A DNA stretch of 64,000 nt from Candidatus Micrarchaeota archaeon (GCA_964647855.1 CAZYJW010000002.1:244399-308398); one strand, 5' to 3'. Numbered from the stretch's first letter, positions 29,521-49,346 are shown. Notes: generated by a model not told the origin, from the sequence alone. Program-made: numbers and translations.

Positions 29521-29810
29521 GGGAACCCGAAACAGGAAACCGAAAAGAGGAATTGGGCAGTTGTGAAATCTCCGACGAGATTTCACTTCCCGCACTTGTT
29601 CGCCGTTGCGAACAAGGCGCACCAAGTTCGCCGAGCGAACTTGATTGTCCCAATTTTCCGTTAGGCAAAACGGAAGACCGGGAACTGGGAACCAAGGGAA
29701 AATTGGGCTGTCGTGAAATCCCTGCGGGGCTTTCACTTCTTCCCAAAATCCCAGCCGGCAAAACGGAAGACCGGAAACTGGGAACCAAGGGGATTTTGGG
29801 CCCGCGCGGG
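29521..29810. repeat. Hairpin-rich block of degenerate direct repeats resembling the element's attachment-site arm (probable integration scars)
   Basis: 45-nt direct repeats lie at 29664-29708 and 29757-29801 (GGCAAAACGGAAGACCGGRAACTGGGAACCAAGG..TTGGGC). AATTGGGC-GT.GTGAAATC modules lie at 29551 and 29701. Perfect 9-bp hairpins lie at 29563-29586, 29595-29616 and 29623-29643. The segment 29530-29558 resembles 36770-36798, next to attR. Confidence 0.7.
29796..29810. repeat. attL core: 15-bp direct repeat TTGGGCCCGCGCGGG (copy of tRNA-Val 3' end)
   Basis: Identical to 36793-36807, which is the discriminator, acceptor and start of the T-stem of tRNA-Val. Confidence 0.7.
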
Positions 29811-30004
29811 TCAGATGTTTCCTGTTTGGTGTTTTGTGTTCTGGGTGCAGCGTCGTGAGTTCTGCGGTTCCCGCATGTCGTTCCGACATGGGGCGCAGAG
29901 AACGAAGTTCTCTGCCGTTCCGTTCCGAGTCCAGCAGGTTTCGGCTGCTGCTTTCCGAACTGTTTTCCGTCAGATCTCATACGGTTCACCTTTATTGGCA
30001 TTAA

Positions 30005-30994
30005 CTAATCTTCGAGTACCAATCCCCAAATCCGTTTCAAAGGTAATTCGGCTTTCAATTCATCATCAAATTTATCGTAATACTTGAAAATCTGTCCGAG
30101 TAAATTCCCGAGGTCCCATAAGCGCATGGAAAAGAATGCATCCTTGGCTTCTGATGTAGCTTGAGAGGTAAATCCACCCGCAGAAACCAATATCCCTTGT
30201 TCAGCTTGGTACTTTGACATGACTCCCCTCAGTTCCCGGACAACCTTCACATCTAAAGAAGAAGATGACGATTTTACCTGCACGCATACTCTGGGTTTTT
30301 CAAATCCTAATGGTCCTGCTGCCGCAAGGATATCGACCCCACCGTCAGGACCAGGAGGAGATAATTTTGTAACGTATCCTTGAGCCTGAAGGATTGCATC
30401 TACCAATCGGGCTAGATTATGCCCCTTAAATTTCGAATTGATATGTTTTACGATTTGATCCTTTGCATTCTCTTCTATATCGACGAGTTCTTCTTCAGTT
30501 ACGGTTTCAGTTCCTTGTGTTGAGATTCCCCCTTCTTGCAGCAGCTTCTTGATACGATTTTCGGCGTCATTTCTTTCAATTTTACCTACGGTTAAAAATG
30601 CCCCCAAGGAGTAGAGAATATCTTGGTCGAAAGCGGAGCGTGGAAGAGTCTTTATCCATTTAACTCGTCGAATATGTTTTATATTATTGGCGAGTTCTTT
30701 GTATTCATATTCTCCCTCAACTTTACCCAAGACAATGGATGATTGCGTCTTGAGTGGAAGCGCCACCAAGTCGCCCACTTTTATCTCATGAATAAATCTC
30801 CAAATCTGGCCTACCTGATTAGCAGCCTTCATTTTCTTTGAATCCGGGTATGTTTTTGAATAGAGTTCAGCAAGTTCTTGTCTAGACTTAATTTTTGATA
30901 AATCGGGCAGCTCCTCCCAACCAATTACAACTACTTTATTCTCTAATGCTCCCGTTTCTCGTTCACCGTAGCTACCAGCTCGAACAAGCCAAAT
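30005..30994 (-). CDS. mrr: Mrr-family (type IV) restriction endonuclease with N-terminal EVE/Mrr_N-like domain; start codon uncertain (first ATG at 30832)
   Basis: The catalytic domain GPDGGVDILAAAG...RVCVQVKSSSS..V.ELRGVM......GILVSAGGFTSQA shows the D...QxK Mrr_cat pattern. In-frame upstream of the first ATG, hand translation gives (I)WLVRAGSYGERETGALENKVVVIGWEELPDLSKIKSRQELAELYSKTYPDSKK, the normal N-terminus of this family. That stretch has no ATG, GTG or TTG; an ATT lies at 30994-30992. Confidence 0.7.
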   Translation of the reverse strand: MWLVRAGSYGERETGALENKVVVIGWEELPDLSKIKSRQELAELYSKTYPDSKKMKAANQVGQIWRFIHEIKVGDLVALPLKTQSSIVLGKVEGEYEYKELANNIKHIRRVKWIKTLPRSAFDQDILYSLGAFLTVGKIERNDAENRIKKLLQEGGISTQGTETVTEEELVDIEENAKDQIVKHINSKFKGHNLARLVDAILQAQGYVTKLSPPGPDGGVDILAAAGPLGFEKPRVCVQVKSSSSSLDVKVVRELRGVMSKYQAEQGILVSAGGFTSQATSEAKDAFFSMRLWDLGNLLGQIFKYYDKFDDELKAELPLKRIWGLVLED

Positions 30995-31155
30995 ACTCAG
31001 AGAATCACCATCCTTTGATTCGTATTATTACTGCATTTCTTTATACCTTTTCGCTTACGCTATCGAGATTGGCATACTATTCTGCGGCACACATCTGACC
31101 AGAAAACCATGCATTGTGGATTTCTAGCCTTCAGTTTATCCTTCGTCCAAGACGG

Positions 31156-31518
31156 TTACGTATCACCACGTTCGTTCATCGTCTTCCTCAGATTGAATAG
31201 CATTGACCGGATTTTCACCAACCGGCCCATGAAATCCAAATGCTCGCGCTGAGGCAGAACTTTGAGTTCCTTCATCATGTCCATCCAGAATTCGCATTCG
31301 TTGGCCTCGCCTATGCAGGTAATTACCTTCTGTTTCATGGCGGCCTTCGATTCGAAAGCGGCCATCTCCGCCAGGTTCGCGCAGATTGATGAGGCAGAAG
31401 CCAGCAATTGCTCCTTCGCCCGATATGAAGTCTGTTTGGTTTCGAAGAAAACGTACAAATCTTTAGATAACCTAAATGCGTCATCGTAGACGACTAGGTT
31501 CTTGAAATTCTGCGTCAT
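31156..31518 (-). CDS. Four-helix-bundle protein (23S rRNA intervening-sequence protein family)
   Basis: MTQNFKNLVVYDDAFRLSKDLYVFF......SASSICANLAE....S.... fits the family pattern. A strong SD GGAGGTG lies 5 nt upstream of ATG 31518. Confidence 0.65.
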   Translation of the reverse strand: MTQNFKNLVVYDDAFRLSKDLYVFFETKQTSYRAKEQLLASASSICANLAEMAAFESKAAMKQKVITCIGEANECEFWMDMMKELKVLPQREHLDFMGRLVKIRSMLFNLRKTMNERGDT

Positions 31519-31984
31519 TGTCCCACCTCCGAATAATACCAATTTCGATAACATTCCCCTTCCCAGAGCCCATTGAACTGACATATCATTTCCATTTCCT
31601 CACCTTTTATTGGCCATGCGGGTTCATTTCCGCACAGACCCCTGCCCGGCTTCCTTAAGTCCGGAATTTCCGGCGAGCTTCACTTCGAAGCCCGGCTCTG
31701 GGAGTTAAGGGCTGAAGAAGTGAAGCGAAGAAATAGCGTTTCGAGTTCTGGGGTTTGGGTCCGAGGGAGCGAGTTCGGTGCGATTTTTATTGCCTTTAGC
31801 GATAGCGACCCGAAGCGATGCCGGAAAGGGCATTATTGGTTTCGGTCGCTAGGCCGAACCGCGAAGTGGCTTTACCATTAAGGCTTTTCCCGGCTGAGCG
31901 AGGGGAAAGGAATAAAATGAGCACGCCGGAAGGCGAGAACGAGCGACCGCGCAAGAAAGGAAGGATTTAAAGTTTACTTTCCTG

Positions 31985-33841
31985 TTGGATAGCATGCGTA
32001 TCTGCCCTAAGTGTGGCCACAAAGCAAGACGTGCAGAGTTTTGTGAAAAATGTGGTGCACATTTAGCACAAATGAAAAAAAAGAGCGAGGGGCCGACTAG
32101 TCCAAAAGCATCTTCAATTTCTCCAGTATTGCTTGCGATTTTTTTAGTTATTATATTAGGTGGCATAGCGCTCGTCATTAGCATTGCAGGGGGATTGGCA
32201 GTGTATGTGGGAGCATTACAATCACCCACGACACTTTCAACGAATATCAAAACAGGAGCAGATGGTTGTGCAGGTACAATCGATTATATTGTCGACCTAA
32301 AGGACGCAAATGCCGAGGGACTGGCTGGTCAAAAAGTCACAATATTTGCAGATGGTGACGAAGTAGAAAAACTGGGAACGGATCAAAATGGCCATCTCGC
32401 AGCCACTAAGGAGATACCGATAGAATGGTGCGGGAAAACAGTTAATTTTACAATTAATTACGGCGGGGATATTTTTCATAAAAATGTTTCCGAATCAACA
32501 ATAGTCACACTAAAAATACCGACAAAGTTGCAACTTTCGGCGCCAAGCCAAGCCGTAAATAACACAGAGACGATAGTCAATTGCACATTAATCAATCTGG
32601 TTGATAATAATCCAATAGCAAACAAAAGCATCGTAGTGCCCAATAGCGTTTCAATTCAGACAAAAACAGATGCGCAAGGAGTTGCTCAGATACGAGTAGT
32701 ATTCAATGAAACAGGGATCAAAAAGATAAAGGCAACTTTCAATGGGGACGATTCATACCTCAGCTCCGAAAGTTCGCTCAACGATGTGCTTGTTGTTCCA
32801 GAAACTTGTAGCGATGGCACGATTGTGGGGGAATGTTCGGATAAAAACCAGGGGCAGTATTGCCTCAAACTTCCAAAAAACGTTTCTACAACACTAGAAG
32901 TTAGTACTGCATTGATTCCGAATTGTGAAGTATGTGCGTGCGCAACTGGCCTCGTATGTTATAGGGATGCATGCATAGCCGAAGAACAAAGAACCACACA
33001 ACTTATCGAAGAACTACAGGATAGTATCGTGTACGTAGAGCACTCTTATGCAACTGGTTCTGGCGTTATTCTCTCACAGAGTGATGGGGAAACCATTATC
33101 TTAACGAATAAGCATGTGGTGGAAGGAGCCAGCAGTATAGGTGATGTTGAGATAACCACCTATGGCCAAAAGACAACTTATGCAAAAAACATACTTGTTG
33201 CGCCAAATGAGATGGACTTGGCTATAATCTACGTTTCAGGGACGTATGGTACGCCTGCTAAGATAAATTACTCTGAGCAGCACTCAAAAGGTCAAGCAGT
33301 TATAGCATTGGGCTCCCCACTGGGGATTCAGGGGAGTGTATCTGATGGAATAATTTCTAATTTTATTTATGATATCCCCTCAGATGTGTATTCTTACGAT
33401 GTAATACAAACTGATGCAGCAATTAATCCAGGTAACAGTGGGGGAGGCCTATTTTTGAAAAGCACGGGTAGCTTGATAGGCATCAACACACTTGTATTAC
33501 CGTCGGAATATGGGCAAGAAGGACTTGGATTCGCTATCGATATTAAGGAATTGCAAGCTCTACCGTCTTATTCAAGTTGGGAAACCTTTACACCAACCCC
33601 GAGGTGTTTCGATGGAACTCCCTATGGTTCTTGTTCTATCTTTTTCATAGGTAAAATGTGCTTGGGTGGATACCTTGAGGATAAATGCGAATTTTGCGGT
33701 TGCCTATCGGGCCAGTACTGCCCATCCAATGGAAAGTGCTTCTCCTGCCCAGCCGGATACACACCTTATGAGGATTATGGTGGAGAGCCGTTCTGCTGTC
33801 CGCCAGGGACAATCGGGTATGTCGGGGGATACTGTTACTAG
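31985..33841 (+). CDS. Membrane-anchored trypsin-like (S1C/HtrA-type) serine protease with N-terminal zinc ribbon and Cys-rich extracellular regions
   Basis: Zn ribbon CPKCGHKARRAEFCEKCG. TM helix ISPVLLAIFLVIILGGIALVISIAG. Ig-like repeats. Protease triad contexts TNKHVV (His), DLAIIYV (Asp) and INPGNSGGGLF (Ser). The C-terminus is Cys-rich. The start is TTG 31985 or ATG 31994. Confidence 0.75.
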   Translation: MDSMRICPKCGHKARRAEFCEKCGAHLAQMKKKSEGPTSPKASSISPVLLAIFLVIILGGIALVISIAGGLAVYVGALQSPTTLSTNIKTGADGCAGTIDYIVDLKDANAEGLAGQKVTIFADGDEVEKLGTDQNGHLAATKEIPIEWCGKTVNFTINYGGDIFHKNVSESTIVTLKIPTKLQLSAPSQAVNNTETIVNCTLINLVDNNPIANKSIVVPNSVSIQTKTDAQGVAQIRVVFNETGIKKIKATFNGDDSYLSSESSLNDVLVVPETCSDGTIVGECSDKNQGQYCLKLPKNVSTTLEVSTALIPNCEVCACATGLVCYRDACIAEEQRTTQLIEELQDSIVYVEHSYATGSGVILSQSDGETIILTNKHVVEGASSIGDVEITTYGQKTTYAKNILVAPNEMDLAIIYVSGTYGTPAKINYSEQHSKGQAVIALGSPLGIQGSVSDGIISNFIYDIPSDVYSYDVIQTDAAINPGNSGGGLFLKSTGSLIGINTLVLPSEYGQEGLGFAIDIKELQALPSYSSWETFTPTPRCFDGTPYGSCSIFFIGKMCLGGYLEDKCEFCGCLSGQYCPSNGKCFSCPAGYTPYEDYGGEPFCCPPGTIGYVGGYCY

Positions 33842-33922
33842 GATTAAGCAGATTGTGCAAAGATAAATGAGTATGAGTAAAGCGAGAGAATGAATGAGTT
33901 CATACTTTTGCACCATAAAAAA

Positions 33923-34738
33923 CTAGATTTTAGTTGAATTGCTCCAACGATGTTCGAAAATAGCTTTTAAGTTCGGCAAGAATCCATGAACAAAATCTTT
34001 TGGGAGAAATATTACGAATGATTCCTTATTGCCTAAGTCCTTGATACCATGGCCGATTACGACAAGTGCATTTTTTGCGATAATGTATCGGTCATGCAAT
34101 TCATAACCATTAGAGTAGCGACGCAGTTCTATATTCTTGAATTCAGATTTGAAGCGTTGTAGATTTTTATTAAATTTTTCTGCATTTCTCTGCTCTTCTC
34201 CACCCAACTCGGAAGATAAAAATCGTATTTTTCTATCATTACCAAACAGAGATAATACATGAAATGTCCCGTTTCCATAATATCGATCAACAATGCATAG
34301 TTCACCCTCTAAGCGTTCAATAATTTTTGGGAATTCTTTATTGAGATCAGACCAAGACTGTTCACCTGAGTAAAAGTGAACGCCCATGGAAGAGGTGAGA
34401 AAACTGTTCGCTTGTAAGAATTTCCTGCCAAGAACCGTAATCTCGTAATATACCTTTCCCGCTTCCTTATGAGCTTTGACCTTTTTACCCGCGCGTGCAA
34501 ATGCCCGGAGGATTGTTTTTTCGTCCAGTGGAATTTCCCTAAGTTGAAATAGAAGGTAACTGATGGCTTTTGCAGTTAGCCTATTGACGACTCCACTGTC
34601 CTTTGTGATCTCTAAAATCCATAATGCCTGCGCTAGCGGTTTCAAATCGGTTGGATTTGGGAATTTGGATAAATCCTTTTTTTTCAATGCCCGGCAGATC
34701 TCTTCCTCGGAGGCGTAACCCATCATATCACCAAACAT
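33923..34738 (-). CDS. Hypothetical protein: N-terminal winged-helix-like region plus C-terminal PLD-fold MIT_C-like domain (HDRY motif)
   Basis: The C-terminal half LCIVDRYYGNGTFHVLSLF..RKIRFLSS.....LQRFKSEF..IELRRYS..ELHDRYIIAKNALVVIGHGIKDLG follows the MIT_C PLD-like pattern as I recall it (DPYI...LT...HDR.I...G.GLD). It overlaps the upstream gene by 11 nt. Confidence 0.5.
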   Translation of the reverse strand: MFGDMMGYASEEEICRALKKKDLSKFPNPTDLKPLAQALWILEITKDSGVVNRLTAKAISYLLFQLREIPLDEKTILRAFARAGKKVKAHKEAGKVYYEITVLGRKFLQANSFLTSSMGVHFYSGEQSWSDLNKEFPKIIERLEGELCIVDRYYGNGTFHVLSLFGNDRKIRFLSSELGGEEQRNAEKFNKNLQRFKSEFKNIELRRYSNGYELHDRYIIAKNALVVIGHGIKDLGNKESFVIFLPKDFVHGFLPNLKAIFEHRWSNSTKI

Positions 34739-35057
34739 ATGCCTTGTATTTCTTTTCTGCCGTTGATTTTGTGGCTTTCCGAAGGAGTTTTCTATTTGCT
34801 AAACGAAGCAACGCAACTGTGACTCGGTCTGATTCACAATGGTACGTTCCTTGGAGTTTTTTATGTACTTCATCAGCGGTTTTTGGGCTTGAGAAAAAGC
34901 CATTATCACGAAGAGCAAGGATGTGGTCGGGGAGTCTGAGATTTCCTTTTGCTGCGTGGTGGGAATTTTTTTTTGCAGGCTTACCTTCAAGTAAGGCCAA
35001 CCTCTCTTCATGATTTTTTAATAACCGCTCAACTTCATCAAACTTAGTTATCGTCAT
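34728..35057 (-). CDS. Hypothetical small protein (coiled-coil plus winged-helix-like C-terminus), middle gene of a 3-gene operon
   Basis: Start chosen at ATG 35057 (MTITKFDEVERLL...). An SD GGGGTGG lies inside the end of the upstream gene, with a 4-nt gap to that gene's stop. Confidence 0.55.
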   Translation of the reverse strand: MTITKFDEVERLLKNHEERLALLEGKPAKKNSHHAAKGNLRLPDHILALRDNGFFSSPKTADEVHKKLQGTYHCESDRVTVALLRLANRKLLRKATKSTAEKKYKAYVW

Positions 35058-35061
35058 ATTG

Positions 35062-35646
35062 TCAACCACCCCTAAGAGTCGAATTCTTCCTAAGCTCTTG
35101 GAGGGCACGAACGCCTGCGTCAGATATCTGAAAGCGCCCTCTACCAGCCCGATCAAACCAGAATTTATATCGAACCATGTCCTGAGCCAACGTCCGATAA
35201 TTCTTTATTAGTGGGAGTTTGCTTGCACCACCCCTCACTAAGGCGCGATATACTTTTTCGAGGTCAATAGTTGAAAATGTCGATTGACCCTTCCGGTCAT
35301 AGAGCTCAGCTATAAGTAGGAGAGCCTCCGGTGATTTAATTTTCTCCGTGTCCTGAATCTCACTTTTAAGAGCCGCCAGATCGCTAGAGGAGATATCAGT
35401 TGCCTCTTCTGGGGTATTGCCTTTGAGCAATCCGGGGGTTTTTCTTTTCGAAGGCGGGAGGACAGGATTGTCAGCCTTTCTCAGCGCACCTGGATTAGAG
35501 AGAAGATGCGTGAGGATTGTCTCGAAGGCCTTAGTTTTTATATCGCCTTCGGGCATTTCACTTATGGCTTCTTCCGCCTTTTTCCTTGCTGCAATAATTT
35601 TTTCAACGTCGTCCATATACTCACCCACATAACCTCCATCTTGCAT
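35062..35646 (-). CDS. Hypothetical protein (helical N-terminus, disordered linker, winged-helix-like C-terminus), first gene of a 3-gene operon
   Basis: 194-aa ORF in the AT-rich element. The C-terminus reads FSTIDLEKVYRALVRGGASKLPLIKNYRTLAQDMVRYKFWFDRAGRGRFQISDAGVRALQEL. Confidence 0.55.
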   Translation of the reverse strand: MQDGGYVGEYMDDVEKIIAARKKAEEAISEMPEGDIKTKAFETILTHLLSNPGALRKADNPVLPPSKRKTPGLLKGNTPEEATDISSSDLAALKSEIQDTEKIKSPEALLLIAELYDRKGQSTFSTIDLEKVYRALVRGGASKLPLIKNYRTLAQDMVRYKFWFDRAGRGRFQISDAGVRALQELRKNSTLRGG

Positions 35647-35780
35647 TATTTAGGATAACAGTTTAAATACATATGTTTCCACGACATAAAATTTCATTTA
35701 ACTCACAAAATGTGAAGAGTAAAATGGTTGGATATAGGAAAAAATTCTGTAGTGTATATTGTCTATGCCGACGATATATA

Positions 35781-36668
35781 TCATGAGCTCTCTTGCATTC
35801 GTTTAATTTTCACTAAAAATCCATCTTCCTGGGCCATGGCAATGCTTCTGTAAAGCTCCTCCTTGCCAGTATGGATATACGTCATCGTCGTTTCCACGCG
35901 GTGGTGGCGTGCAAACTTGCTCGTCAGAACCACGTTGCCGTTGTTTTTCTTTGAAAAATTCGTTATGGCGTAGTGGCGGAGGCTATGGGTGGTGAGGCGG
36001 TGGAGCTGCTTGGGTATGCTGCCATCGGCTAAGCCATAGGTTTCATCCAGCTTCAGCTTCCGAATCGTCTGCCGGAAGACGTTGCGAACGTAGTTCTTGT
36101 CAAGGTAAGGACAGGGGTTTCGGTCGGGGAAGGTTTCGGCCCAGAAAAGATGGCCTTTCGCCTTGGCTATCGCATCCTCGTAGTCGCTGATATACTTCAG
36201 CATCTGCTCAAAGAGTTGAGGGGGGATGGGGAGGCTGTCGGCACGGCTGCCTTTCTGGTTGTCTATCTTGAGGTCTCGGGTTTCGAGGTTTAGGTCCTTC
36301 ACATGGAGCTTGACGGCTTCCCCTATCCTGAGCCCTAAAACAGCCTGGAAAGTGAAAAGCAAGGCCATCCTTGGGTCTTCCACGGCATTCAGGAAGCGGA
36401 TAAGCTCCTGCTCCGTGAAGCCTTTGTTCATCGTCCCGTATTTCGGTATCCGCCTGCGCAGGAAACGCCGCTTTCGGGCTTCTGACAGGATTTCTATGGC
36501 CCGGACGAGCCTTTGTTTGGGGAGGTAGCGTCCAAGCCATTCTAAGGTCTCCTTGGCTTCTGGCCAGAGCTGCTTGGTTTCGTGTCTAGAGGGTTTTGAG
36601 TTCTGATTGCACGGGGCCCAGAGGCTGGTTTTGGGTTCTGTGTCGTGGGTTCTGTTCGCTTTCGGCAA
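35781..36668 (-). CDS. Tyrosine recombinase / integrase (start uncertain; track ORF runs to 36872 through the tRNA)
   Basis: Catalytic-domain signatures LGLRIGEAVKLHVKDL (Arg), HSLRHYAIT (H-x-x-R) and ARHHRVETTMTYIH (His...Tyr). Directly adjacent to tRNA-Val. TTG 36668 is the first plausible start outside the tRNA; the next ATG is far downstream (MNKGF). Confidence 0.8.
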   Translation of the reverse strand: MPKANRTHDTEPKTSLWAPCNQNSKPSRHETKQLWPEAKETLEWLGRYLPKQRLVRAIEILSEARKRRFLRRRIPKYGTMNKGFTEQELIRFLNAVEDPRMALLFTFQAVLGLRIGEAVKLHVKDLNLETRDLKIDNQKGSRADSLPIPPQLFEQMLKYISDYEDAIAKAKGHLFWAETFPDRNPCPYLDKNYVRNVFRQTIRKLKLDETYGLADGSIPKQLHRLTTHSLRHYAITNFSKKNNGNVVLTSKFARHHRVETTMTYIHTGKEELYRSIAMAQEDGFLVKIKRMQESS

Positions 36669-36792
36669 GGCCCGAACTGGCGGGAGAGCGAACAGAGCCG
36701 TTTCTTGGCCCCAATCGGGCAGAAGTTGTGGCAGAATCTCCGACGTAAAAAGGCAAAACTCAGAACTCAAAACAGAAAACCGAAAACAAGAA

Positions 36793-36807
36793 TTGGGCCC
36801 GCGCGGG
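36793..36807. repeat. attR core: TTGGGCCCGCGCGGG within the tRNA-Val 3' end
   Basis: Identical 15-mer to 29796-29810. Confidence 0.7.
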
Positions 36808-36941
36808 ATCGAACCGCGAATCTCCCGCGTGTGAGGCGGACGTCTTAACCAGAATCGAAGCCGGAGGCGCACCTCAGGCCTTTTTCCAGGGTTTTTGGCA
36901 TAAGATAGACCTAAGCCAAAAAGCCTTTCGACTACGGGCCC
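36794..36941 (-). tRNA. tRNA-Val (anticodon CAC) with a roughly 70-nt non-canonical intron in the D-arm
   Basis: The reverse complement reads GGGCCCG-TA-GTC[...insert...]TTCTGGTTAAGAC-G-TCCGC-CTCACAC-GCGGG-AGATT-CGCGG-TTCGATC-CCGCG-CGGGCCC-A. The acceptor, anticodon and T arms fold perfectly. The D-arm halves GTC and GAC are separated by about 70 nt containing the TTTTTGGC/GCCAAAAA and GAGG/CCTC helices. The exact splice points are not resolved. Confidence 0.8.
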
Positions 36942-36976
36942 AACAAATGGACGAGAACTAATCGTCCGGAAGGATT

Positions 36977-36985
36977 TTTATATTA
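36977..36985. promoter_or_regulatory. Shared AT-rich TATA element (TTTATATTA) between divergent tRNA-Val and tRNA-Gln
   Basis: It lies about 35 nt from the 5' end of each tRNA gene (36941 and 37019). Confidence 0.5.
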
Positions 36986-37018
36986 TTCCGAGGCTTTCTC
37001 ATCGGTTGATTGTCGCAC

Positions 37019-37131
37019 AGCCCCGTCGTCTAGTTCCGCCTTTTAGTAAAAGGCGGCCTAAAACGAGGGACATTGGTCAAGGATAGTGGACTTTGGATCC
37101 ATTGACGGCAGTTCGAATCTGCCCGGGGCTA
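37019..37131 (+). tRNA. tRNA-Gln (anticodon TTG) with a roughly 39-nt non-canonical intron in the D-loop
   Basis: AGCCCCG-TC-GTCT-AGT[TCCGCCTTTTAGTAAAAGGCGGCCTAAAACGAGGGACAT]TGGTCAA-GGAT-A-GTGGA-CTTTGGA-TCCAT-TGAC-GGCAG-TTCGAAT-CTGCC-CGGGGCT-A. The insert contains a 9-bp hairpin (CCGCCTTTT/AAAAGGCGG). Boundaries are approximate. Confidence 0.8.
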
Positions 37132-37173
37132 TTCTTGTTCCCGGTTCCGGGTTTCCGGTTTTGAATTCCTGGT

Positions 37174-40928: not shown

Positions 40929-43900
40929 GTGATGGGCATGACCGGATTCAAGATGAGGGGGGAGTCAGGGGCCCAGGGCGCTGCTCCGGCCATATCCGAC
41001 CGAACAGGAGGCGCCCTGGCAAATCAGACTCTGGCGGATTTCAACGCGGTCTGGCAAAGGCACTTCGGGGGCACCGCCATAGCGGCGATAGCCGAGGTCT
41101 CTTCAAGGCACGTGTCGCTGATTGCCGGCAGCATCGACCGCAGGCTCGGGATAAGCGATTTTCTCGGCTCCACCTCAGGGCGGCCACAGGCGGCAATCAT
41201 CTCCAACCTGTCGAACCAGGCCCTCATAGCCGCCCAGCAGGACCAGATGCAGCGGGCGATAGCCCTGATTAAGGAGGCGGACGAGAAACTGCAGGCGGCC
41301 GTATCGGTGGACAGGCGCGGCAAGGACCTGGACGAGGCGGAGGCAAAGGAGAAGGCGAAGGATGAGAGCGCAGTATCCGAGGCGAAGGAGGCCCTCACCG
41401 CCTCGATTTCCGACGCGGGAACCGCCAGCGCGGGCAGGATGCAGATGATAGGCGAGGCGGTCGGATTTTATGCAAGGAACCGGGCCGTCCTAGGCCTTCC
41501 GGGGATGGAGGAACAGAAACGCGCGCTTCTCAATTTCATCACGGCCCTCGGGCGCGAGGCGAAGGAAGGCGGCTTGTTCGAGAAGGAGGCGAAAGCGGGG
41601 GAATTCGCTGCAATCCGGGGGCGCATTGAGCCTGTGGCGATGGAAAGGACCGGCTTCGCGCTTGCGGCGGCCACCAGCGCGATGGAAAGCGCAAGCCGCG
41701 CATTGGGGCTCGGCGGCGTTTCCGCGGAGTTCAGGAAGGCCGCCATGCGCATCCGGGATAATGCGGAAAGAATCCGCAATGCCATGCGGGAGGGCGGGCA
41801 GGCCCCGGAGGAGCAGACGCGCGGGCTGATGGCGGCCGCAACCCTCGCGAAACAGGCGAACGAGGCGCTGTCCGCCATGGGCGGGCGGCTGCGGGAGCAG
41901 GTGAGCACGATATTCGCGCGCATGCTGGATGCGGGACAAGCCGGGGACATGAAAACCGCCGGGGTCCAGGCATTCATCGCAAGGGAGTGCGCGCTTGCGA
42001 AAGCGCCGGCGAGGGAGGCCCTGGGCGCGATAAGCGCGTCGCTCGAATCCGGCAAAATCAGGCTGTCGGAGGCTATTGACGGCGCTGCGAAATACATATC
42101 GGGAATCCTGAAAGGGAAGGCGAAGGGCATAGTGCATGAGGGCGCCCTCAATCCGCTAAGGAAACTGATTGACAGGCTCGATGGGGGCAAGGCGACGGTC
42201 AACGACCTGGAATCCGCAAGGATCGCAGCCGGGCTTGCGGAGAGCTACAAGAAGGACATTCCGGCGCTTTCGAAGAACGCAAAGGCGCAGGAAGGCGCGA
42301 AGGCGATTTATTCGAGGGCGTTCTCGGCGGCTGCCGGAGGGCTTGTGCGGTTCGCCTCGCTCCAGGGCCGCATCGCCGGGCTTTTCGGGAAGAAGAGGAT
42401 GTCCAAGGTCAGGGATGGCCTTGAGGGGATTTCCAACAGGGCTGAGAGGGCCGCGAAGCTGACCATCCTGCACCAGCTTGTCAGGGAGGGGATGAAGCCG
42501 GATGAGGCGGCATTGCTTTGCGCGGAGGGTGACGAAAGCATCCTGAACTCCTACAAGGCGATGGCCGACCCGGATGCAACGCTTGAGGCGGAAGGGAAGA
42601 TGCTGGAGATGTCGGTTTTCGCAGCTGAGCTGAGAAGCGTGCTTGCCAAGAAGGCCCTTGGGGACGAGAGCGGGATATACAAGGCGGCGGTGGAATGGCT
42701 CGACGAACGGATTATATCGGCGATAGCCGGCGGCGGCCAGCCGCACGCGCAGGACAACCGGGCGCTTTTCGCCCTCGCGGCAATCCACAGTGGCGACTCG
42801 CGCGCGATGGCGCAGTTCCTCCTTGAAGAGCCGGAGCTGCTGGGCCTGATGGACGGCGTCGGCGGCATCGAAACGGCCCTTGAGGGGGTCCACGGGGATG
42901 AGAAGGCGGACGTCCAGGACATCCTCTGGAGCGCGCAGGAGGCCGTCTTCGGGGGGAGATTCGCCGAGGCGGCGGGGCATATGGTTGCCGCGAGCGCCGC
43001 CGCCAGGCTGGGGGGGAAGGACGGGAAGATGCTCGAGGAGCGCAGCTATGGCGCGGCATGCGAGGGCACCGTGAGCGCCCGGACGCTGCTGTTCACCGCG
43101 AGGGCCCAGCTCGACAGGGCGCTGCACGCCGGCAGGGGCGACACTGAGTCGGACGCATACTTTGATGCCGCCATAATCGCGTACGAATCCGGCGACTTCA
43201 ACGGGGCGCAGGCCGCGCTTTCGCTCGCGAACCTTTTCGCGAGGGCTAAATCCGCCGGGCTCTCCGACCCGCGGGGGCAGGAGGCGGCTGCCATGGCGAG
43301 GGAAATCCTCGGCGATTACCGGGGCGCTTCCGGCAGGCCGCTTTTCGGCGGATGCGGCCTTCGCGGCATGATTGGCGGGGATGGCACGCTGCTGGAGCGG
43401 CTGGAGGGCGCGGCTGCGGATGCGGGCCCCATGGCGGGATGGCTTGCCGGATTCTCCGGCGAAAAGAAGCTGGCGGCCCTGGCGCTTCGCGTGAGGAAGG
43501 CCGAGATCGGGCTCGGCCGGGCGGAGATGGGCGCGGCCCTTCTTGCGGTCACGGACGGCAGATATGACGATGTCTATGCGGGGCGGGAGGACAGATACGC
43601 AGACAAGGCGGCATCGGCGCAGAAAAAAGGCGATGCCGTGAATGCTGAGCGCTGGAGGAAGGAGGCGGAACGCGTATCGAATGCGCGCGGTCTCGCGAAG
43701 GGGGCCGCGCTGGCCTACGAGGAGGGCGCGCAGATGCAGGAGCAGGAGTTGGACGGGATGCTCGATGAGCTCGCCCGGGGCGGCGCGCCGTCCGAAAGCG
43801 GCGCACTGAAGGACGGGGCTCTGGCGGCAGGCCTCTCGATAAGGGCGATGGAGGCGGCCTCGGTGCTCCATGACAGCATAGTGAACGTGCGCACGGACGA

Positions 43901-46900
43901 TAAGGAGGATGGCCGGGAGGAGCTGGAGCGCGCCGCGGAGGGATTCCTTAAGGCGGCGACCGCGTTGGAAAAGGGCGCCGGGGCGGATGCGGCCCTTGTT
44001 TCATATGCGGAGTCCGACCTTGCATCAGGTATGGTGGCGGTCGGGAAGCAGAAGCGGATACAGCGCGAGGAGAAAAGGATAGAGAAGAAGCTGCTCGAGA
44101 TGATTGCCGGATGCCGCAGCAGGAACGAGGAAAACAAGAGGGAGTTCATCGATTCCGGGCTGGACGCGCCGCTCACTGACATCTATACCGACCATGGCAC
44201 GGTGCGTGCCGGGGAGGCCGGCCGCCTCGTTAATTATGAGGAGAGGGCGAGGGAGCTCGACGATGCCGAGGAGGATGCGCTGGGCCGCAGATTCCGGGAT
44301 TCGTTCCGCCATATCAGAGCCGCGGAAATCGGCATGGAAATCGACAGGTACAGGGCGGGCGTCGAGGTCGAGTACAGGCGCCTCTATCCCAAGCTTGAGA
44401 CCGCCTGGAGCGAGGAGGGCCTCCAAGCCGTCGAAGTAATGAGGCAGATGGGCCGCGAGGACATGCAGAAGGACCTGTTTTCTGCGGACGCCGCACTCAG
44501 GCGGGGGGATATGGAGGAGGCCGCCGAAGCCATAGCGGGGTTCGGCACAAGATTCCGGGTGGGCGTCGCAATCCAGGAAATCGCACTCCAGGAATGGACG
44601 CTCGGCCGCATATCCTCGGGCCTGGGCGGAATGGCGGAAGCCGCGGCCGGATTCGGATTCGATGAAAAAGTCGTGAAGGAATCCGGCGTGGATTTCACCA
44701 AGGACGCGGGATACGCCATAGAGAAGCTGGGCGAGCACATAAAGCTCAAGAAGGCGACGAACCCGTTTTTCGGATTCGGCGCGCACGATGAGAGCGTTCG
44801 GGCCGTGAGAGCCATCTCCGGGGCAAAGAGCATGGCCATGAAGGCGGCGGAGCTGAAAAAGGCAGCGGACGATACCGCCTCGGCCCTTCGCTCCGAGCGC
44901 ATGGAGCTTCGGGAGCGCCAGGAGGCCGGGGACGGAGACCGTGCCCTTGAGGAAGGGAGCGGAAGGATAGGGAAGCACTTCGAGTCCGCCTCCGAAATAT
45001 CCGGGCGCTATTCGCGAATCGGAGATGGATTCCAGCTTTGGTCCTCGTGCGCGGGGCAGATGCTAAACCTGCTGGACGGGGCCGATTCCATAGAGAAGGC
45101 CCGCGGAAGCGGGGGCTCGCAGGGCGTGCAATACCGCCAGATACGGGAGGATGCGGGCGTTCTGGGGCAGCTTGCGGGCATGGTGGCGTCCGACCCTGAA
45201 GGCGCGGTTGCTTTGGTCCTTTCCGGCCAGTCGGTCGCATACCGGATGGGCACGGGGGATTTCAAGCTGCGCGAAGAGCATGGCGGGTACGCCGAATCGT
45301 CCATACCCCTCCAGAGCCGCAGCGGCAGCTTCGCGGAGCTCTTCGCGCAAGCCAACGAGCGCTCCCTGCATGTCGCCGAGGCTCTTTCGGGAGGACTGTT
45401 CGGAAAGAGGGGGCGCTCCCTCCCAATCGCCAAGGATTACACCGGCCTGGTTCTCCTGAACGCGGGCATCGCGCAATCCGGGGGGGCGCTGAAACAGGTG
45501 GCGCTCGGGCAGAGGGAAAGGGGCGTGGTTTCGCGTGCGCTGAACGGAAGCGGGGGGGCCAACCAGATGATGGGCATGTTCTTCTCCGCCCCGGCGACCC
45601 TGACCAGCTTCTTCTCTACGGACGAAGGCGAGGCGGCGCTCGACTCCATAGTCGGCGGCCTGGAGGCGGGCTCTTCGGCATCCGAAGAAATAAGCAAATG
45701 GGCGCTCCGGGGGGAGCGCATGGATGCTGAGGCTCTCGGACGCCTCTCCGCCCGGATTGACGAGGGCAATAAGAGCGCGAAAAAAGCGTATGACCGGGCA
45801 ATCAAGGAGGGCCTGAGCGACGAGAGCACCGCGAGGGGCGTGCGCGCGCTCTTCGATATGGGCCTTTCAATAGGGCTCACGGCGAGCGGGTTCGGCTCGG
45901 TGGCCGGAATATACGGCGGCACCATGGCCCTGCAGGAGCTCGCTTTCCAGAGCGACAGGGCGGGGGGTTTCGACAACCTTTCCACTTTCGACCAGGTGAT
46001 GGGAGTGGTGAACGTCGGGACCGGATTCGCCGACGGGGCGACGTCATTCCTCGGCGAAATCGGGAAGGCGGGTGGCGCGCTGCACAGCATGCGCATGATT
46101 GACGCGGGGTTCTCATCGTCGGGCCGGGCCGGCAGGATGGCGCTCAGTTTCATGCCGGGTGGGGCCGGCTCCACATGGGCCGGCCGCATCCTCGGCTCGA
46201 CTTCGCTAATTTCCGGCGCGGCCGGCATCCCGATGATGGTTGCCGGATACGCCGAAGGGAAGATGAACTGGTTCGAGTTCGGCGTGGGATTGGCCGGTTC
46301 CCTCCAGCCGGTCGTCGACCACGGCACCGCCTCGCTCGGCTATCGCGGAATGAAAAAACTCGTTCCGGAGGAAGGGGGAGGAGGGCGCGGCGCAAGGGCG
46401 AAGGCCGCAATCCGCGGCTTCGTGTTCGGTTTCACGGGCAACTCTATAATTGGCGACACGGAGGCATACTCGTCCGTACACGCCATAGAAGAGCATGGGA
46501 GGGCGCTATCGAAGCTCAAGGAATCCGAAAGGTCGGATTACTTCAAGGCCGAGGCCATGGCGGAGAGGGGGCTCGGCAGGCCCCTTGAGCCGGAGGAGGG
46601 GGCGTACCTCGCATCGATAATCGGCGGAGGTTCTGCGGGAAAGGACGCCGTTGTGGAGATGCTCGCGAAGCCGAGGATGGATGCCGATTTCCGGATGTAC
46701 CTCATGCGGAAGGCGGGCGAGGAAATCGACCTTTCCCAATTCAACGCGGATGAGAGGCGGTTTCTGGAAGGGCTGCTGCCCCTTGACAAGGATGCCGCAT
46801 GGAACGCGATTGCGGGCAGGGAATACCGCGAAGCGGAGCGCATTCTCGTCGGCGAAGGCATCGAGGCTCCGGGCTTCCACCCGTTTGCAAGAAGGGTTGG

Positions 46901-49346
46901 CGAGCTCCGGGAGGCGTTTGGGCTTCTGAAGGAGGGCCGGCTGACGGATTCCGCCAGGAAGCGTCTCGCTATTGGCGATTCGGAGATGAAAGTGTTCGCC
47001 GGAATGAGCGGCGAAGCCGTTGGCGATGCGGTCGGGTTGGTGGGTGGTTCTGAATTGCCGGATTTGCTGAAGCCCGGCCAGGCCAGCCTCATTGTGGATT
47101 CTTCGCACGAAAAGGCCGGCGCTTCTAAGGAGCATGTCGAGGCGGCGATCAGCTGGCTTGCCGGAAGGCACTCCGACCCGGTGCGGGAAATCGAAAGCGA
47201 GTTTGGGTATGTGCCCGGCTCTTCCGGCCTCGAAGCCGAGCTGATGTCAAGGCGCGGGAGCGTTTCGGCGGCCACGGGCAGTAAACCCGCGGAAGCCGGA
47301 GTGATCAGAACGGCCCGGACCCTCGAGAGGATGATTTCCCAGAGGGATGAGACGGGCCGGATGCCCCGGGAACTGCTTGACGGCCTCTGCGCCGCATATC
47401 CCGAGTACGGGGGGGCGCTGCGCGATCTTGACGCCGCGCACGCGGACGAGCTGCCGCATCTGGTGCGCCAGGAGGCCGAGGCCATCGCGTATTCCAGGCG
47501 CTCGGGAGAAATCGAGGCGGCAATCCTTGAATCAGGGCTGGACAAAGAGACCGCGAATGTCGCACGGATAATCCATAAATCCCTGCATGGGGAGCGCACG
47601 GATGCGGGGATAGCGCATCTTGACGATGCGGTCATCGAAGACGTGACAAGGCTGGTCGCCGGCGGGATGGAGGAGGCCGATGCGGTCGTGGAGGCGGCGC
47701 TTGGCGTGTCGAAGAGGGCCGAAGAAGCGCGCGCCCAGAATCTCGCGCGTGACGGACTGCTCGATGCGGGGCGGGCCGGAAGTGCTGTCGAATCGCTGGG
47801 CATGTCGAAGGAAAGGCCCCAGGAGCGCGCAGAGGTCATCAGCCTGGCCGAAAGGAGAATGGGCAGGGACGGCGGGCCTCCGGACGGGCCGGCGCCTCCG
47901 GATTCGGCCAGGGCTAAGGAAGCGGAGCTCGCGCGGACCGGGACCGACGGCCGTGTCGAAGCGGTCGGAACCATGGCGGAAGACGGCGATGGCATTGCGG
48001 AGGGCACGATAGTCAGCGGGCCCGGCAGCTGGTTTCGGAGATGGAAGGAGAAGTCGAAGGCCGGAAAGTCGGGCCGGGGGGACGGAGCGGCACAGGATGC
48101 CCCGGCGGGCGCCAGAATCCGGACAGGGGACGCTCCCGTCAAGAAGGCGGCGGAAGTAGTCCTTCCCGAAACTCTCAGGGACCCTCGCGCCGAACCGTTC
48201 AAGGACCGGTACGAATTCGTTTCACCGGATGGGAGGAAGCTCAAGGTCAGGGACTCGCCGCAGGCCACGCTCGGCGGGAGAATCGGCTCGGGCGCCGGTT
48301 GCGAGGTTTTTTCCGGGAGGATGATGGTTGATGGCCGCGAGAAGGAAGTCGCAATAAAGGTCCTCTCCGTATCCAAGGAGCAGGGCGAGGACAATATCGG
48401 GTGGGAGGAGAGGATGGACAAGGCGGTCGGCGAGCTCGAGCGCCTCGGGGTGGGAAGCAGGCTCGGGGTCGGCCCGGCGCCCCTCGGATTCGTGGAGGTG
48501 GGCGGGAATCCCGCAATCGCGATGGAGCTTGTAAGGGGAAAGCCGCTGGAGGAGATGGATGCCGGCGAAATCCGGGAATTCGTATCGGAAAAGACCATAT
48601 CAAGCCTGGGTGATTCATACTGGAAGATGCGGAACGGCGGGTATATGCAGGATGACTTCCAGTATCTCGTGCTGACAGAGGACCAGACGATCGGGGGCAT
48701 ATCGCGGAGCAAGGGCGAGGTGGTATTCATAGACATGGAATCGCTGAAACCAGTGGGGGAGTCCGGCAGGATAGAGATGTTCGGGGATACGACACTGGAA
48801 ACCGAAGCAAAGGCCATCCGCAGCCATTGCGCCTTCGCATTCTTCAGCGAATACTACTCTGCGCTCTCAGCAGCAAAGGACCGGGCGCCCAAGGCGGAAC
48901 TTGACATGGCGATGTCGGGCGTGTTCGGATGGAAGGCGGCCAATCCGATAAATATCGCCTCGGCCGTGAAAATGGATTCCCGAAAAAGGGTGGATGCGGT
49001 CGAAGCCGCCCTCAGAAAGATGGAGGCGGAAAGTCCGGCGCAAGCGGAAAAAACGAGGGAGGCGCTCAGGAGGGCTGGGGCGGAATCCAAGGTGGTTTTC
49101 GTAGCAGACGACGTTTCGCTCGCATGGTACGCCCGTGAGGTCGTGCTGGATAGGGGCGGCGCGGGCTTCGCGCTCGATTCCCTGGGCCAGCGTGAGGCCA
49201 GATTCGTGAGAATGCTCGCGGAAGACGATAAGTTCCGCCTCAACGCTTCCGGAAGCGAGAAATCATTCAAGCGTTTCATCAGCAACGCAAGGTCCGGAGC
49301 CGCCCTGCTCGGGCAAGCCCGCCGCAGGTCGGAAACGCCGGAATAG
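40929..49346 (+). CDS. Giant protein 1 (2,805 aa), unknown family; central Gly/Ala-rich hydrophobic block and C-terminal protein-kinase-like domain
   Basis: One uninterrupted ORF in the track. It starts at GTG 40929 or ATG 40932, directly abutting the stop of the RecJ-like gene. Composition is Ala/Glu/Gly/Arg-rich and non-repetitive. All long ORFs on other frames or the opposite strand inside it look like GC-rich shadows. Confidence 0.85.
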   Translation: MMGMTGFKMRGESGAQGAAPAISDRTGGALANQTLADFNAVWQRHFGGTAIAAIAEVSSRHVSLIAGSIDRRLGISDFLGSTSGRPQAAIISNLSNQALIAAQQDQMQRAIALIKEADEKLQAAVSVDRRGKDLDEAEAKEKAKDESAVSEAKEALTASISDAGTASAGRMQMIGEAVGFYARNRAVLGLPGMEEQKRALLNFITALGREAKEGGLFEKEAKAGEFAAIRGRIEPVAMERTGFALAAATSAMESASRALGLGGVSAEFRKAAMRIRDNAERIRNAMREGGQAPEEQTRGLMAAATLAKQANEALSAMGGRLREQVSTIFARMLDAGQAGDMKTAGVQAFIARECALAKAPAREALGAISASLESGKIRLSEAIDGAAKYISGILKGKAKGIVHEGALNPLRKLIDRLDGGKATVNDLESARIAAGLAESYKKDIPALSKNAKAQEGAKAIYSRAFSAAAGGLVRFASLQGRIAGLFGKKRMSKVRDGLEGISNRAERAAKLTILHQLVREGMKPDEAALLCAEGDESILNSYKAMADPDATLEAEGKMLEMSVFAAELRSVLAKKALGDESGIYKAAVEWLDERIISAIAGGGQPHAQDNRALFALAAIHSGDSRAMAQFLLEEPELLGLMDGVGGIETALEGVHGDEKADVQDILWSAQEAVFGGRFAEAAGHMVAASAAARLGGKDGKMLEERSYGAACEGTVSARTLLFTARAQLDRALHAGRGDTESDAYFDAAIIAYESGDFNGAQAALSLANLFARAKSAGLSDPRGQEAAAMAREILGDYRGASGRPLFGGCGLRGMIGGDGTLLERLEGAAADAGPMAGWLAGFSGEKKLAALALRVRKAEIGLGRAEMGAALLAVTDGRYDDVYAGREDRYADKAASAQKKGDAVNAERWRKEAERVSNARGLAKGAALAYEEGAQMQEQELDGMLDELARGGAPSESGALKDGALAAGLSIRAMEAASVLHDSIVNVRTDDKEDGREELERAAEGFLKAATALEKGAGADAALVSYAESDLASGMVAVGKQKRIQREEKRIEKKLLEMIAGCRSRNEENKREFIDSGLDAPLTDIYTDHGTVRAGEAGRLVNYEERARELDDAEEDALGRRFRDSFRHIRAAEIGMEIDRYRAGVEVEYRRLYPKLETAWSEEGLQAVEVMRQMGREDMQKDLFSADAALRRGDMEEAAEAIAGFGTRFRVGVAIQEIALQEWTLGRISSGLGGMAEAAAGFGFDEKVVKESGVDFTKDAGYAIEKLGEHIKLKKATNPFFGFGAHDESVRAVRAISGAKSMAMKAAELKKAADDTASALRSERMELRERQEAGDGDRALEEGSGRIGKHFESASEISGRYSRIGDGFQLWSSCAGQMLNLLDGADSIEKARGSGGSQGVQYRQIREDAGVLGQLAGMVASDPEGAVALVLSGQSVAYRMGTGDFKLREEHGGYAESSIPLQSRSGSFAELFAQANERSLHVAEALSGGLFGKRGRSLPIAKDYTGLVLLNAGIAQSGGALKQVALGQRERGVVSRALNGSGGANQMMGMFFSAPATLTSFFSTDEGEAALDSIVGGLEAGSSASEEISKWALRGERMDAEALGRLSARIDEGNKSAKKAYDRAIKEGLSDESTARGVRALFDMGLSIGLTASGFGSVAGIYGGTMALQELAFQSDRAGGFDNLSTFDQVMGVVNVGTGFADGATSFLGEIGKAGGALHSMRMIDAGFSSSGRAGRMALSFMPGGAGSTWAGRILGSTSLISGAAGIPMMVAGYAEGKMNWFEFGVGLAGSLQPVVDHGTASLGYRGMKKLVPEEGGGGRGARAKAAIRGFVFGFTGNSIIGDTEAYSSVHAIEEHGRALSKLKESERSDYFKAEAMAERGLGRPLEPEEGAYLASIIGGGSAGKDAVVEMLAKPRMDADFRMYLMRKAGEEIDLSQFNADERRFLEGLLPLDKDAAWNAIAGREYREAERILVGEGIEAPGFHPFARRVGELREAFGLLKEGRLTDSARKRLAIGDSEMKVFAGMSGEAVGDAVGLVGGSELPDLLKPGQASLIVDSSHEKAGASKEHVEAAISWLAGRHSDPVREIESEFGYVPGSSGLEAELMSRRGSVSAATGSKPAEAGVIRTARTLERMISQRDETGRMPRELLDGLCAAYPEYGGALRDLDAAHADELPHLVRQEAEAIAYSRRSGEIEAAILESGLDKETANVARIIHKSLHGERTDAGIAHLDDAVIEDVTRLVAGGMEEADAVVEAALGVSKRAEEARAQNLARDGLLDAGRAGSAVESLGMSKERPQERAEVISLAERRMGRDGGPPDGPAPPDSARAKEAELARTGTDGRVEAVGTMAEDGDGIAEGTIVSGPGSWFRRWKEKSKAGKSGRGDGAAQDAPAGARIRTGDAPVKKAAEVVLPETLRDPRAEPFKDRYEFVSPDGRKLKVRDSPQATLGGRIGSGAGCEVFSGRMMVDGREKEVAIKVLSVSKEQGEDNIGWEERMDKAVGELERLGVGSRLGVGPAPLGFVEVGGNPAIAMELVRGKPLEEMDAGEIREFVSEKTISSLGDSYWKMRNGGYMQDDFQYLVLTEDQTIGGISRSKGEVVFIDMESLKPVGESGRIEMFGDTTLETEAKAIRSHCAFAFFSEYYSALSAAKDRAPKAELDMAMSGVFGWKAANPINIASAVKMDSRKRVDAVEAALRKMEAESPAQAEKTREALRRAGAESKVVFVADDVSLAWYAREVVLDRGGAGFALDSLGQREARFVRMLAEDDKFRLNASGSEKSFKRFISNARSGAALLGQARRRSETPE

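Follow-up and report, generated by a model that had tools for sequence, protein, structure and literature searches.

The splicing system closest to the one reported here is that of ARMAN-2 (Candidatus Micrarchaeum acidiphilum), in which 56% of the transfer RNA (tRNA) genes are disrupted (Fujishima et al. 2011, PMC3239211) and for which structures of the epsilon2-type splicing endonuclease EndA are available (4FZ2 and 9W2K; PMC3488258, PMC12397907). In vitro, this enzyme accepts relaxed splice motifs as well as strict ones (PMC3239211), and its complex with RNA features a 4-bp central helix and two 3-nt bulges, with the cut placed between the second and third bulge nucleotide (PMC12397907). Here we describe a divergent pair of genes, tRNA-Val(CAC) and tRNA-Gln(UUG), in a 64,000-nt stretch of Candidatus Micrarchaeota archaeon DNA (CAZYJW010000002.1:244399-308398; "the window", in whose positions coordinates are given unless a contig is named). 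Comparative analysis indicates that these are very probably functional, single-copy genes whose precursors carry endonuclease-type introns in the D-loop, between nt 15 and 16.

The organism shares with ARMAN-2 its phylum, the EndA architecture with its key residues, and the presence of many introns at non-canonical positions with relaxed motifs. It differs in belonging to another genus of higher GC content (61%), in an EndA that is only ~60% identical (our estimate from the alignment), and in an apparently higher fraction of interrupted tRNA genes (~10 of ~40 intron-free, as compared to 56% disrupted). Moreover, the substrates tested in the ARMAN-2 papers carried introns at 37/38 and 59/60, whereas those of the pair lie at 15/16. 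The (alpha-beta)2 enzymes of crenarchaea and nanoarchaea also cleave relaxed motifs at many tRNA positions, but here the enzyme is a fused three-unit protein, accompanied by a small paralogue without the catalytic Tyr and His. The pair is an expected feature of Micrarchaeota with an epsilon2 endonuclease and overturns nothing in the current picture.

Neither default ARAGORN nor Rfam at its gathering threshold reported any tRNA in the window; at an E-value threshold, Rfam returned only two partial tRNA matches of 26 bits each, over the 3' parts of the Val and Gln genes. Read on the minus strand from 36941, the first Val exon is GGGCCCG UA GUCG AA; after the insert, the second exon continues as UGGUUA AGAC G UCCGC CUCACAC GCGGG AGAUU CGCGG UUCGAUC CCGCG CGGGCCC A. 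The Gln gene, read on the plus strand from 37019, begins with AGCCCCG UC GUCU AG and resumes after its insert with UGGUCAA GGAU A GUGGA CUUUGGA UCCAU UGAC GGCAG UUCGAAU CUGCC CGGGGCU A. When the two introns listed in Table 1 were cut out in silico, ARAGORN recognised both products with full cloverleaves. In our own intron-tolerant cloverleaf scorer both genes obtained 47, within the range of clear tRNAs in the genome-wide scan (44-49) and above the background (~40 or below).

A sequence-only reading of this DNA had placed the ends of both genes exactly where we find them and had recognised the D-arm inserts whose removal completes the cloverleaves, although its lengths of ~70 and ~39 nt fell slightly short of the actual 75 nt (Val) and 40 nt (Gln). 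The 9-bp hairpin that it had noticed inside the Gln intron is real (37036-37056). It was also right that all three tRNA genes of the window contain introns, at the non-canonical position 15/16 in Val and Gln and at the canonical position 37/38 in the third gene, tRNA-Thr(UGU). We discarded the calls that ARAGORN made with anticodon-loop introns allowed ("Asp(atc)" for Val, a 586-nt "Arg(tct)" over both genes and "Ser(tga)" for Thr), and weak Rfam matches within the introns (MAT2A_A, ceN67, L31 leader), far under their gathering scores, were taken as chance.

The splice junctions were fixed with orthologous loci, found by BLAST of the locus against 40 related genomes. One sister genome (G005) carries the same divergent Val/Gln pair without inserts, with Rfam tRNA scores of 67.2 (Val) and 57.5 bits (Gln); an intron-less Val gene is also present in G010, and an intron-less Gln gene in G004, G007 and G013. 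The intron-less orthologues read GUCGAAUGGUUAAGAC (Val) and GUCUAGCGG(U/C)CAAGGAU (Gln). A single cut per gene, after nt 15 and resuming at UGG, recreates their D-loops, with predicted spliced junctions GUAGUCGAA/UGGUUAAGAC (GUCGAA/UGGUUA) in Val and GUCGUCUAG/UGGUCAAGGAU (GUCUAG/UGGUCA) in Gln. The predicted junctions are in this way determined through intron-less orthologues, independently of any splice motif. For Gln, the sequence alone leaves an ambiguity of 1 nt (AG/U or AGU/), which is resolved because of the splice-motif geometry (a 4/4 helix with correct spacing).

The Val exons match those of G023, the nearest relative, at 73 of 73 positions and differ from the intron-less G010 orthologue by one acceptor-stem nucleotide (C5 to U). 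The Val intron of G023, 78 nt long, differs from that of the window by about a dozen substitutions and a 3-nt indel (our count from the alignments). Conserved exons around a diverged intron are what one expects where a gene is functional and its intron is under weaker constraint.

To assess the splice motif, we compared two tetramers, exon nucleotides -6 to -3 relative to the 5' cut and intron nucleotides -6 to -3 relative to the 3' cut. In both genes the two tetramers pair at all four positions (Table 1), an outcome with a probability of ~2% for each fixed junction by our calculation with G-U pairs allowed. The bulges are AA/A and UC/U in Val and AG/U and AU/U in Gln (the slash marks the cut), so that each cut falls 2 nt 3' of the 4-bp helix, on opposite strands. 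Mapping of bulge-helix-bulge (BHB) motifs, which the sequence-only reading had named as a way to define the splice sites, thus gave a 4-bp helix with 3-nt-bulge spacing at both junctions. Since the exon partner is the 5' strand of the D-stem in both genes, the 3' end of each intron mimics the 3' strand of the D-stem. Val introns at 15/16 were found in seven species, with lengths from 19 to 119 nt; the helix is 4/4 in five of them and 3/4 in two, while the intron tetramer itself varies (CGAU, CGUC, UGAU, CGAC, CGGU). In the unconstrained minimum free energy fold of pre-tRNA-Val the central helix is present, and this fold is 1.8 kcal/mol better than the forced D-stem fold. In pre-tRNA-Gln, too, the helix conformer wins over the D-stem conformer, by 0.6 kcal/mol.

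Table 1. Positions of the two divergent tRNA genes, their parts and associated features in the window.
Feature	Position	Strand	Details
tRNA-Val(CAC) gene	36794-36941	-	148 nt; CCA not encoded; spliced product 73 nt, called Val(cac) by ARAGORN
Val 5' exon	36927-36941	-	nt 1-15, GGGCCCGTAGTCGAA; junction set by intron-less orthologues reading GTCGAATGGTTAAGAC
Val intron	36852-36926	-	75 nt; D-loop, between nt 15 and 16
Val 3' exon	36794-36851	-	58 nt
Val central helix, 5' strand	36929-36932	-	GTCG, nt 10-13 (D-stem 5' strand); pairs 4/4 with CGAT
Val central helix, 3' strand	36854-36857	-	CGAT, intron nt -6 to -3
tRNA-Gln(UUG) gene	37019-37131	+	113 nt; CCA not encoded; spliced product 73 nt, called Gln(ttg) by ARAGORN
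Gln 5' exon	37019-37033	+	nt 1-15
Gln intron	37034-37073	+	40 nt; D-loop, between nt 15 and 16
Gln 3' exon	37074-37131	+	58 nt
Gln central helix, 5' strand	37028-37031	+	GTCT, nt 10-13; pairs 4/4 with GGAC
Gln central helix, 3' strand	37068-37071	+	GGAC, intron nt -6 to -3
Gln intron module	37036-37064	+	9-bp hairpin CCGCCTTTT-AGT-AAAAGGCGG and tail CCTAAAAC
AT tract ATTTTTATATTATT	36974-36987		candidate shared TATA element(s); 14 bp, only strong AT-rich element in the spacer
Inverted repeat GGACGA-N7-TCGTCC	36949-36967		between AT tract and Val 5' end, about the expected Val start
tRNA-Thr(UGU) gene	7603-7773	+	third tRNA gene of the window; 99-nt intron at canonical 37/38 (7639-7737)

The genome encodes a matching set of splicing enzymes. 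One protein, 392 aa long and with three endonuclease-like stretches, aligns from residue 4 to residue 392 with residues 5-387 of the ARMAN-2 epsilon2 EndA (4FZ2 chain A; E 9.9e-129), and Pfam recognises tRNA_int_endo in two stretches in addition to tRNA_int_endo_N. The alignment conserves the catalytic Tyr236/His251/Lys282, Tyr160-Lys161 of the ARMAN-specific loop, Arg275, Trp384 and the L10-pocket dimerisation pair Lys224/Asp357 (roles of these residues from PMC12397907 and PMC3239211). These features place the EndA of the genome in the three-unit epsilon2 type (alphaN, alpha, betaC); a separate pair of catalytic alpha and structural beta EndA proteins was not found in the genome. The relaxed-specificity endonuclease that the sequence-only reading had anticipated from the D-arm introns is therefore encoded, with its key residues conserved, and its view of these introns as informative on lineage was correct: the closest EndA genes in public genomes belong to Candidatus Micrarchaeota metagenome-assembled genomes (MAGs). 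An RtcB ligase is also encoded; its match (C1:515740-517053, outside the window) lies in a 619-aa open frame, the Pfam RtcB model having 426 positions.

A second EndA-like protein of 165 aa is encoded outside the window (C2:370319-370810; L002:1456-1950; PF01974, 38.5 bits). In this paralogue the catalytic Tyr is replaced by His and the catalytic His is absent, while the Lys is kept. It is conserved in 23 of 24 searched genomes of the genus, at 40-74% identity, and is also common across Micrarchaeota MAGs, often under the plain annotation of tRNA splicing endonuclease. The paralogue could be a non-catalytic partner of the epsilon2 enzyme. We know of no description of this protein.

Interrupted tRNA genes are the rule in this genome (1.36 Mb in four contigs, 61% GC, 81% complete). 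ARAGORN found 10 tRNA genes without introns and ~36 with anticodon-loop introns allowed, and the Rfam tRNA model exceeded its threshold at 21 places only, many of them 100-190 nt long. Our cloverleaf scan, which presupposes intact acceptor and T arms and so misses genes with introns there, recovered ~35-40 credible tRNA genes. Of the recognisable genes, ~10 of ~40 are intron-free and about three quarters are interrupted. Further introns after nt 15 occur in Thr(CGU), Val(UAC), Arg(UCU) and Trp(CCA), all with a central helix to nt 10-13, and other introns of the D region in Arg(UCG), two Ser genes, Lys(UUU) and Leu(CAA). The pair in the window is typical of its genome, in which position 15/16 is a recurrent intron site.

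In several tRNA genes the 5' acceptor strand (with nt 8-9 in two of them) is copied one to three times, 55-133 nt upstream (C1:507979-508187, C1:281644-281823 and C3:102392-102659; for example GCCTCGGTA, GCGGCTGT and GCTGGGG). Rows of the scan in which the scorer took such duplicates as exon 1 (Asn, Gly(UCC) and one gene on C3) were left unused as artefacts, as were those in which an intron hairpin was taken as the anticodon arm (e.g., "Arg(CCT)" and "Gln(TTG)" at C1:518184).

Taken as a mechanism, the data suggest that in the precursor the 5' strand of the D-stem (nt 10-13) would pair not with its mature partner but with the 4-nt mimic of the D-stem 3' strand near the 3' end of the intron. 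With this 4-bp helix, each strand would carry one splice site, 2 nt 3' of the helix, in the BHB geometry, and a self-contained intron hairpin 0-1 nt past the 5' bulge would stand in for the outer helix. Homodimeric epsilon2 EndA would cut both sites and RtcB would join the exons; the D-stem could then form, and CCA would be added last.

Several observations weigh against functional genes spliced in this way. An exon-exon outer helix at the 3' site was not found in either gene, so the strict hBHBh' form does not apply; the intron side instead offers a local hairpin or stem that starts 0-1 nt past the 5' bulge, in place of a long-range h'. Because the outer helix is absent and the hairpin is local, we class both predicted motifs as relaxed BHB motifs (HBh'/bulge-helix-loop-like). 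Two Gln orthologues with an intron at the same site pair at just 3/4 and 2/4 positions, and the Gln helix conformer lies 2.1-2.2 kcal/mol above competing best folds (constrained and unconstrained). We also infer that U4-U5 runs inside the introns might terminate some transcripts. Finally, the genome is 81% complete, leaving room for a second copy of either gene. A rival idea sees the two loci as pseudogenes in decay, or as genes into which a small repeat element has inserted and made them inactive, with decoding left to other tRNAs. Such an idea would suit loci that standard finders miss and inserts that belong to repeated sequence families, and Val(UAC) could in principle read GUG by wobble. 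We nevertheless consider it extremely improbable: exon sequences are intact and the same as in orthologues, in contrast to the diverging introns, the same site bears introns in several species with the pairing helix kept, Gln(UUG) is the sole candidate found for reading CAA, and most tRNA genes of the genome are interrupted likewise, with the matching enzyme present. Intact intron-less copies elsewhere, which according to the sequence-only reading would mark the pair as decayed duplicates, did not turn up either: in the 81%-complete genome, ARAGORN, Rfam and our scan found no further gene for Val(CAC) or for Gln(UUG).

Functional genes with other junctions are very improbable as well. Such junctions would be 16/17 in Gln, a cut after nt 22 in Val, or a two-step removal of nested introns from the 75-nt Val insert. 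The 1-nt ambiguity in Gln (AGU/.../GG is allowed) leaves room for them, the unconstrained Gln fold contains a second, nearly symmetric bulged structure around the hairpin, and the top Val solution of our scorer was a different junction. That first-ranked solution, after nt 22, was rejected for failing to recreate the orthologue D-loop. Only 15/16 recreates the intron-less D-loops, AAUGGUUA in Val and, in Gln, the 9-nt AG-N-GG-Y-CAA, which matches AGCGGYCAA at 7-8 of 9 positions; likewise, only 15/16 gives a 4/4 central helix with the right spacing, whereas the alternatives produce D-loops that are over-long or lack A21. Excision at 15/16 from functional Val and Gln precursors is the reading we retain. 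Transcription of the two genes probably runs outward from a single AT tract, which can be read as a TATA box on both strands.

This tract lies in the 77-nt spacer between the genes and includes the element TTTATATTA (36977-36985). Its two ends are 32 nt (Val) and 31 nt (Gln) away from the 5' ends of the genes; the sequence-only reading had put a single central element at about 35 nt from each gene. Spacers of 63-74 nt in three sister genomes (G005, G007, G010) each contain a similar central AT tract. At other tRNA genes of the genome, the most AT-rich upstream 8-mer is mostly centred 30-44 nt from the mature 5' end; ATTTTTAT and AATATAAA are among these 8-mers, and both occur within the tract on opposite strands, at 41 and ~40 nt. 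Its position and conservation make it plausible that the two genes share the tract as a promoter element. In Pyrococcus furiosus, one TATA box directs initiation both ways, and the starts lie 49-50 bp apart (Gruenberger et al. 2019, PMC6640164). The BRE-TATA-BRE promoters (BRE, B recognition element) of that species resemble the putative arrangement here in having a nearly symmetric single TATA midway between outward units; there, however, the second transcript is mostly non-functional antisense RNA, whereas here both products would be essential tRNAs. A bidirectional promoter is expected to have a BRE on both sides; the Gln flank of the tract is purine-rich (GGAAGGA), and the Val flank is less clear. 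A less likely arrangement, though one to be taken seriously, is that of two distinct TATA boxes in partial overlap (plus-strand ATTTTTAT and minus-strand AATATAAA), each having factor contacts of its own, or of a tract that serves only one gene. The 14 bp fit two offset 8-mers overlapping by 5 bp, each resembling upstream elements of other tRNA genes; on the other hand, the spacer has no second AT-rich element, TATA-binding protein binds symmetrically, and the P. furiosus starts arise from one TATA with a BRE on both sides. The sequence is compatible with one box as well as with two overlapping boxes.

At the place of the inverted repeat between the tract and the Val gene (Table 1), G005 and G010 have hairpins of other sequence (GCGGAT...ATCTGC and CAGAT...ATCTG, respectively). 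Downstream, both genes are followed by similar trailers (36740-36793, minus strand; 37132-37165, plus strand), which start with TTCTTGTT and continue with periodic GGTTT(T)C and T-runs. These trailers are probably terminators.

The introns themselves belong to shared families. The Gln intron contains a module with a regular layout: a stem of 4-5 bp, UUUU, a loop of 2-4 nt, AAAA, the complementary stem and a tail CCMAAAAC. About 20 copies were found in the genome as compared to none in shuffles, every one within or beside a tRNA gene. The outer stem covaries, with 5 of 9 pairs changed on both sides, 98.8% of cells paired and a covariation score of 0.52 vs. 0.17 in shuffles; a scan without the paired-flank requirement gave the same copies, so the covariation count is not circular. 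In the sense orientation, the module hairpin begins 0-2 nt past the 5' cut, at 15/16 and 37/38 introns alike, and an inverted copy is located at the 3' end of some introns. The Thr(UGU) intron has both, a sense copy at its 5' and an inverted copy at its 3' end; the two tails, CAAAAC and GTTTTG, are mutually complementary, and the predicted central-helix tetramer CGGG overlaps the 3' hairpin, making these two structures mutually exclusive. The loop and U-run of the module could pair with the tail, as in a pseudoknot or switch, with loop and tail co-varying in some copies only. A C/D-box guide RNA was rejected for the Val-type intron family, which has CUGA but no box C by eye, and a class-wide search for the module pattern was uninformative in AT-rich genomes, where controls scored as high as matches.

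Similarity among these introns does not follow tRNA orthology. In the BLAST search, positions 37034-37065 of the Gln intron recurred at 94-97% identity in many of the sister genomes, each time at numerous places overall, and a part of the Val intron recurred as well. Over its first 32 nt, the Gln intron shares 88-91% identity with the Arg(UCU) 15/16 and Asp(GUC) 37/38 introns of its own genome, as compared to only 52-74% with the Gln 15/16 introns of G010, G018 and G024; the G010 Gln intron, in turn, is 94% identical to the Val(UAC) intron of the window genome. The first ~55 nt of the Val(CAC) intron align with the Asn(GUU) and Ser(UGA) 37/38 introns of the same genome. Intron sequences are closer between non-orthologous tRNAs and positions than between orthologous sites of relatives. 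For Thermoproteales, PMC4090602, citing Fujishima 2010, mentions intron similarity that ignores tRNA orthology and is read as intron transposition. As far as that account goes, the likeness lies in near-identical introns in non-orthologous tRNAs, at canonical as well as non-canonical sites; the differences lie in the phylum, in the (alpha-beta)2 EndA there as opposed to epsilon2 here, and in the shared part, which here is a defined module (hairpin with U4/A4 core and CCMAAAAC tail) next to the splice site. Full-text literature searches gave no description of such intron families in Micrarchaeota.

Based on these patterns, we tentatively propose, without regarding it as the likelier option, that the introns of this Micrarchaeota genus are exchangeable cassettes and not unrelated insertions. 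The minimal unit, ~40 nt long, would combine four parts: next to the 5' cut, a hairpin that folds by itself and has an invariant U4/A4 core, then the A-rich CCMAAAAC linker, a 4-nt guide and two further nucleotides. The guide would be complementary to four exon nucleotides located 3-6 nt upstream of the insertion point, and a cassette would need just these four matching exon bases for epsilon2 EndA to splice it at any landing site. Such a cassette would account for the same module at 15/16, 37/38 and elsewhere, for differences in presence and absence from species to species, and for similarity that ignores tRNA orthology.

Beside the Val gene lies an integrated element of ~7 kb (29811-36792) with 42-45% GC in surroundings of ~62%. 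A perfect 15-bp direct repeat, TTGGGCCCGCGCGGG (29796-29810 and 36793-36807), borders the element on both sides and is identical with the 3' end of tRNA-Val(CAC); tRNA-Val is therefore also an integration target. The element encodes a tyrosine recombinase with a Phage_integrase domain (open reading frame (ORF) 35781-36872 on the minus strand, probably starting near 36431), a restriction endonuclease of the Mrr type, a protein of the 23S-rRNA-IVP family and a trypsin-like protease of 618 aa that has Ig-like domains. The attachment-site (att) repeat is in the same frame in both flanking ORFs. We do not claim an SSV-type split integrase, as the N-terminal parts are of low complexity and the recognisable integrase has its start at a Met inside the ORF. 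Two tandem 61-nt repeats (29648-29801), 82% identical and each ending in TTGGGC, lie immediately outside the att copy on the left; they resemble the T-rich trailers found after tRNA genes and may be remnants of earlier integrations at the same tRNA. Elsewhere in the window, a 2805-aa open reading frame extends from 40929 to 49346 on the plus strand.

Overall, these results have consequences for annotation as well as for the biology of the group. Default finders report none of the three tRNA genes of the window and about ten genome-wide; such MAGs therefore look tRNA-poor as long as introns of the non-canonical kind are left out of the model. The locus provides a clean, comparatively documented case of a 15/16 intron, with sister-species alleles with and without the intron, in which one strand of the D-stem also serves in the splice-site helix and the genome itself encodes the cognate epsilon2 enzyme. 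The intron modules, present in many species and variable in occurrence, form a tractable data set on the gain of endonuclease-type introns. If the cassette idea is true, it would represent a second, independent large-scale spread of BHB introns, in DPANN archaea, and would offer a sequence rule of unusual explicitness for how new introns come to be spliceable.

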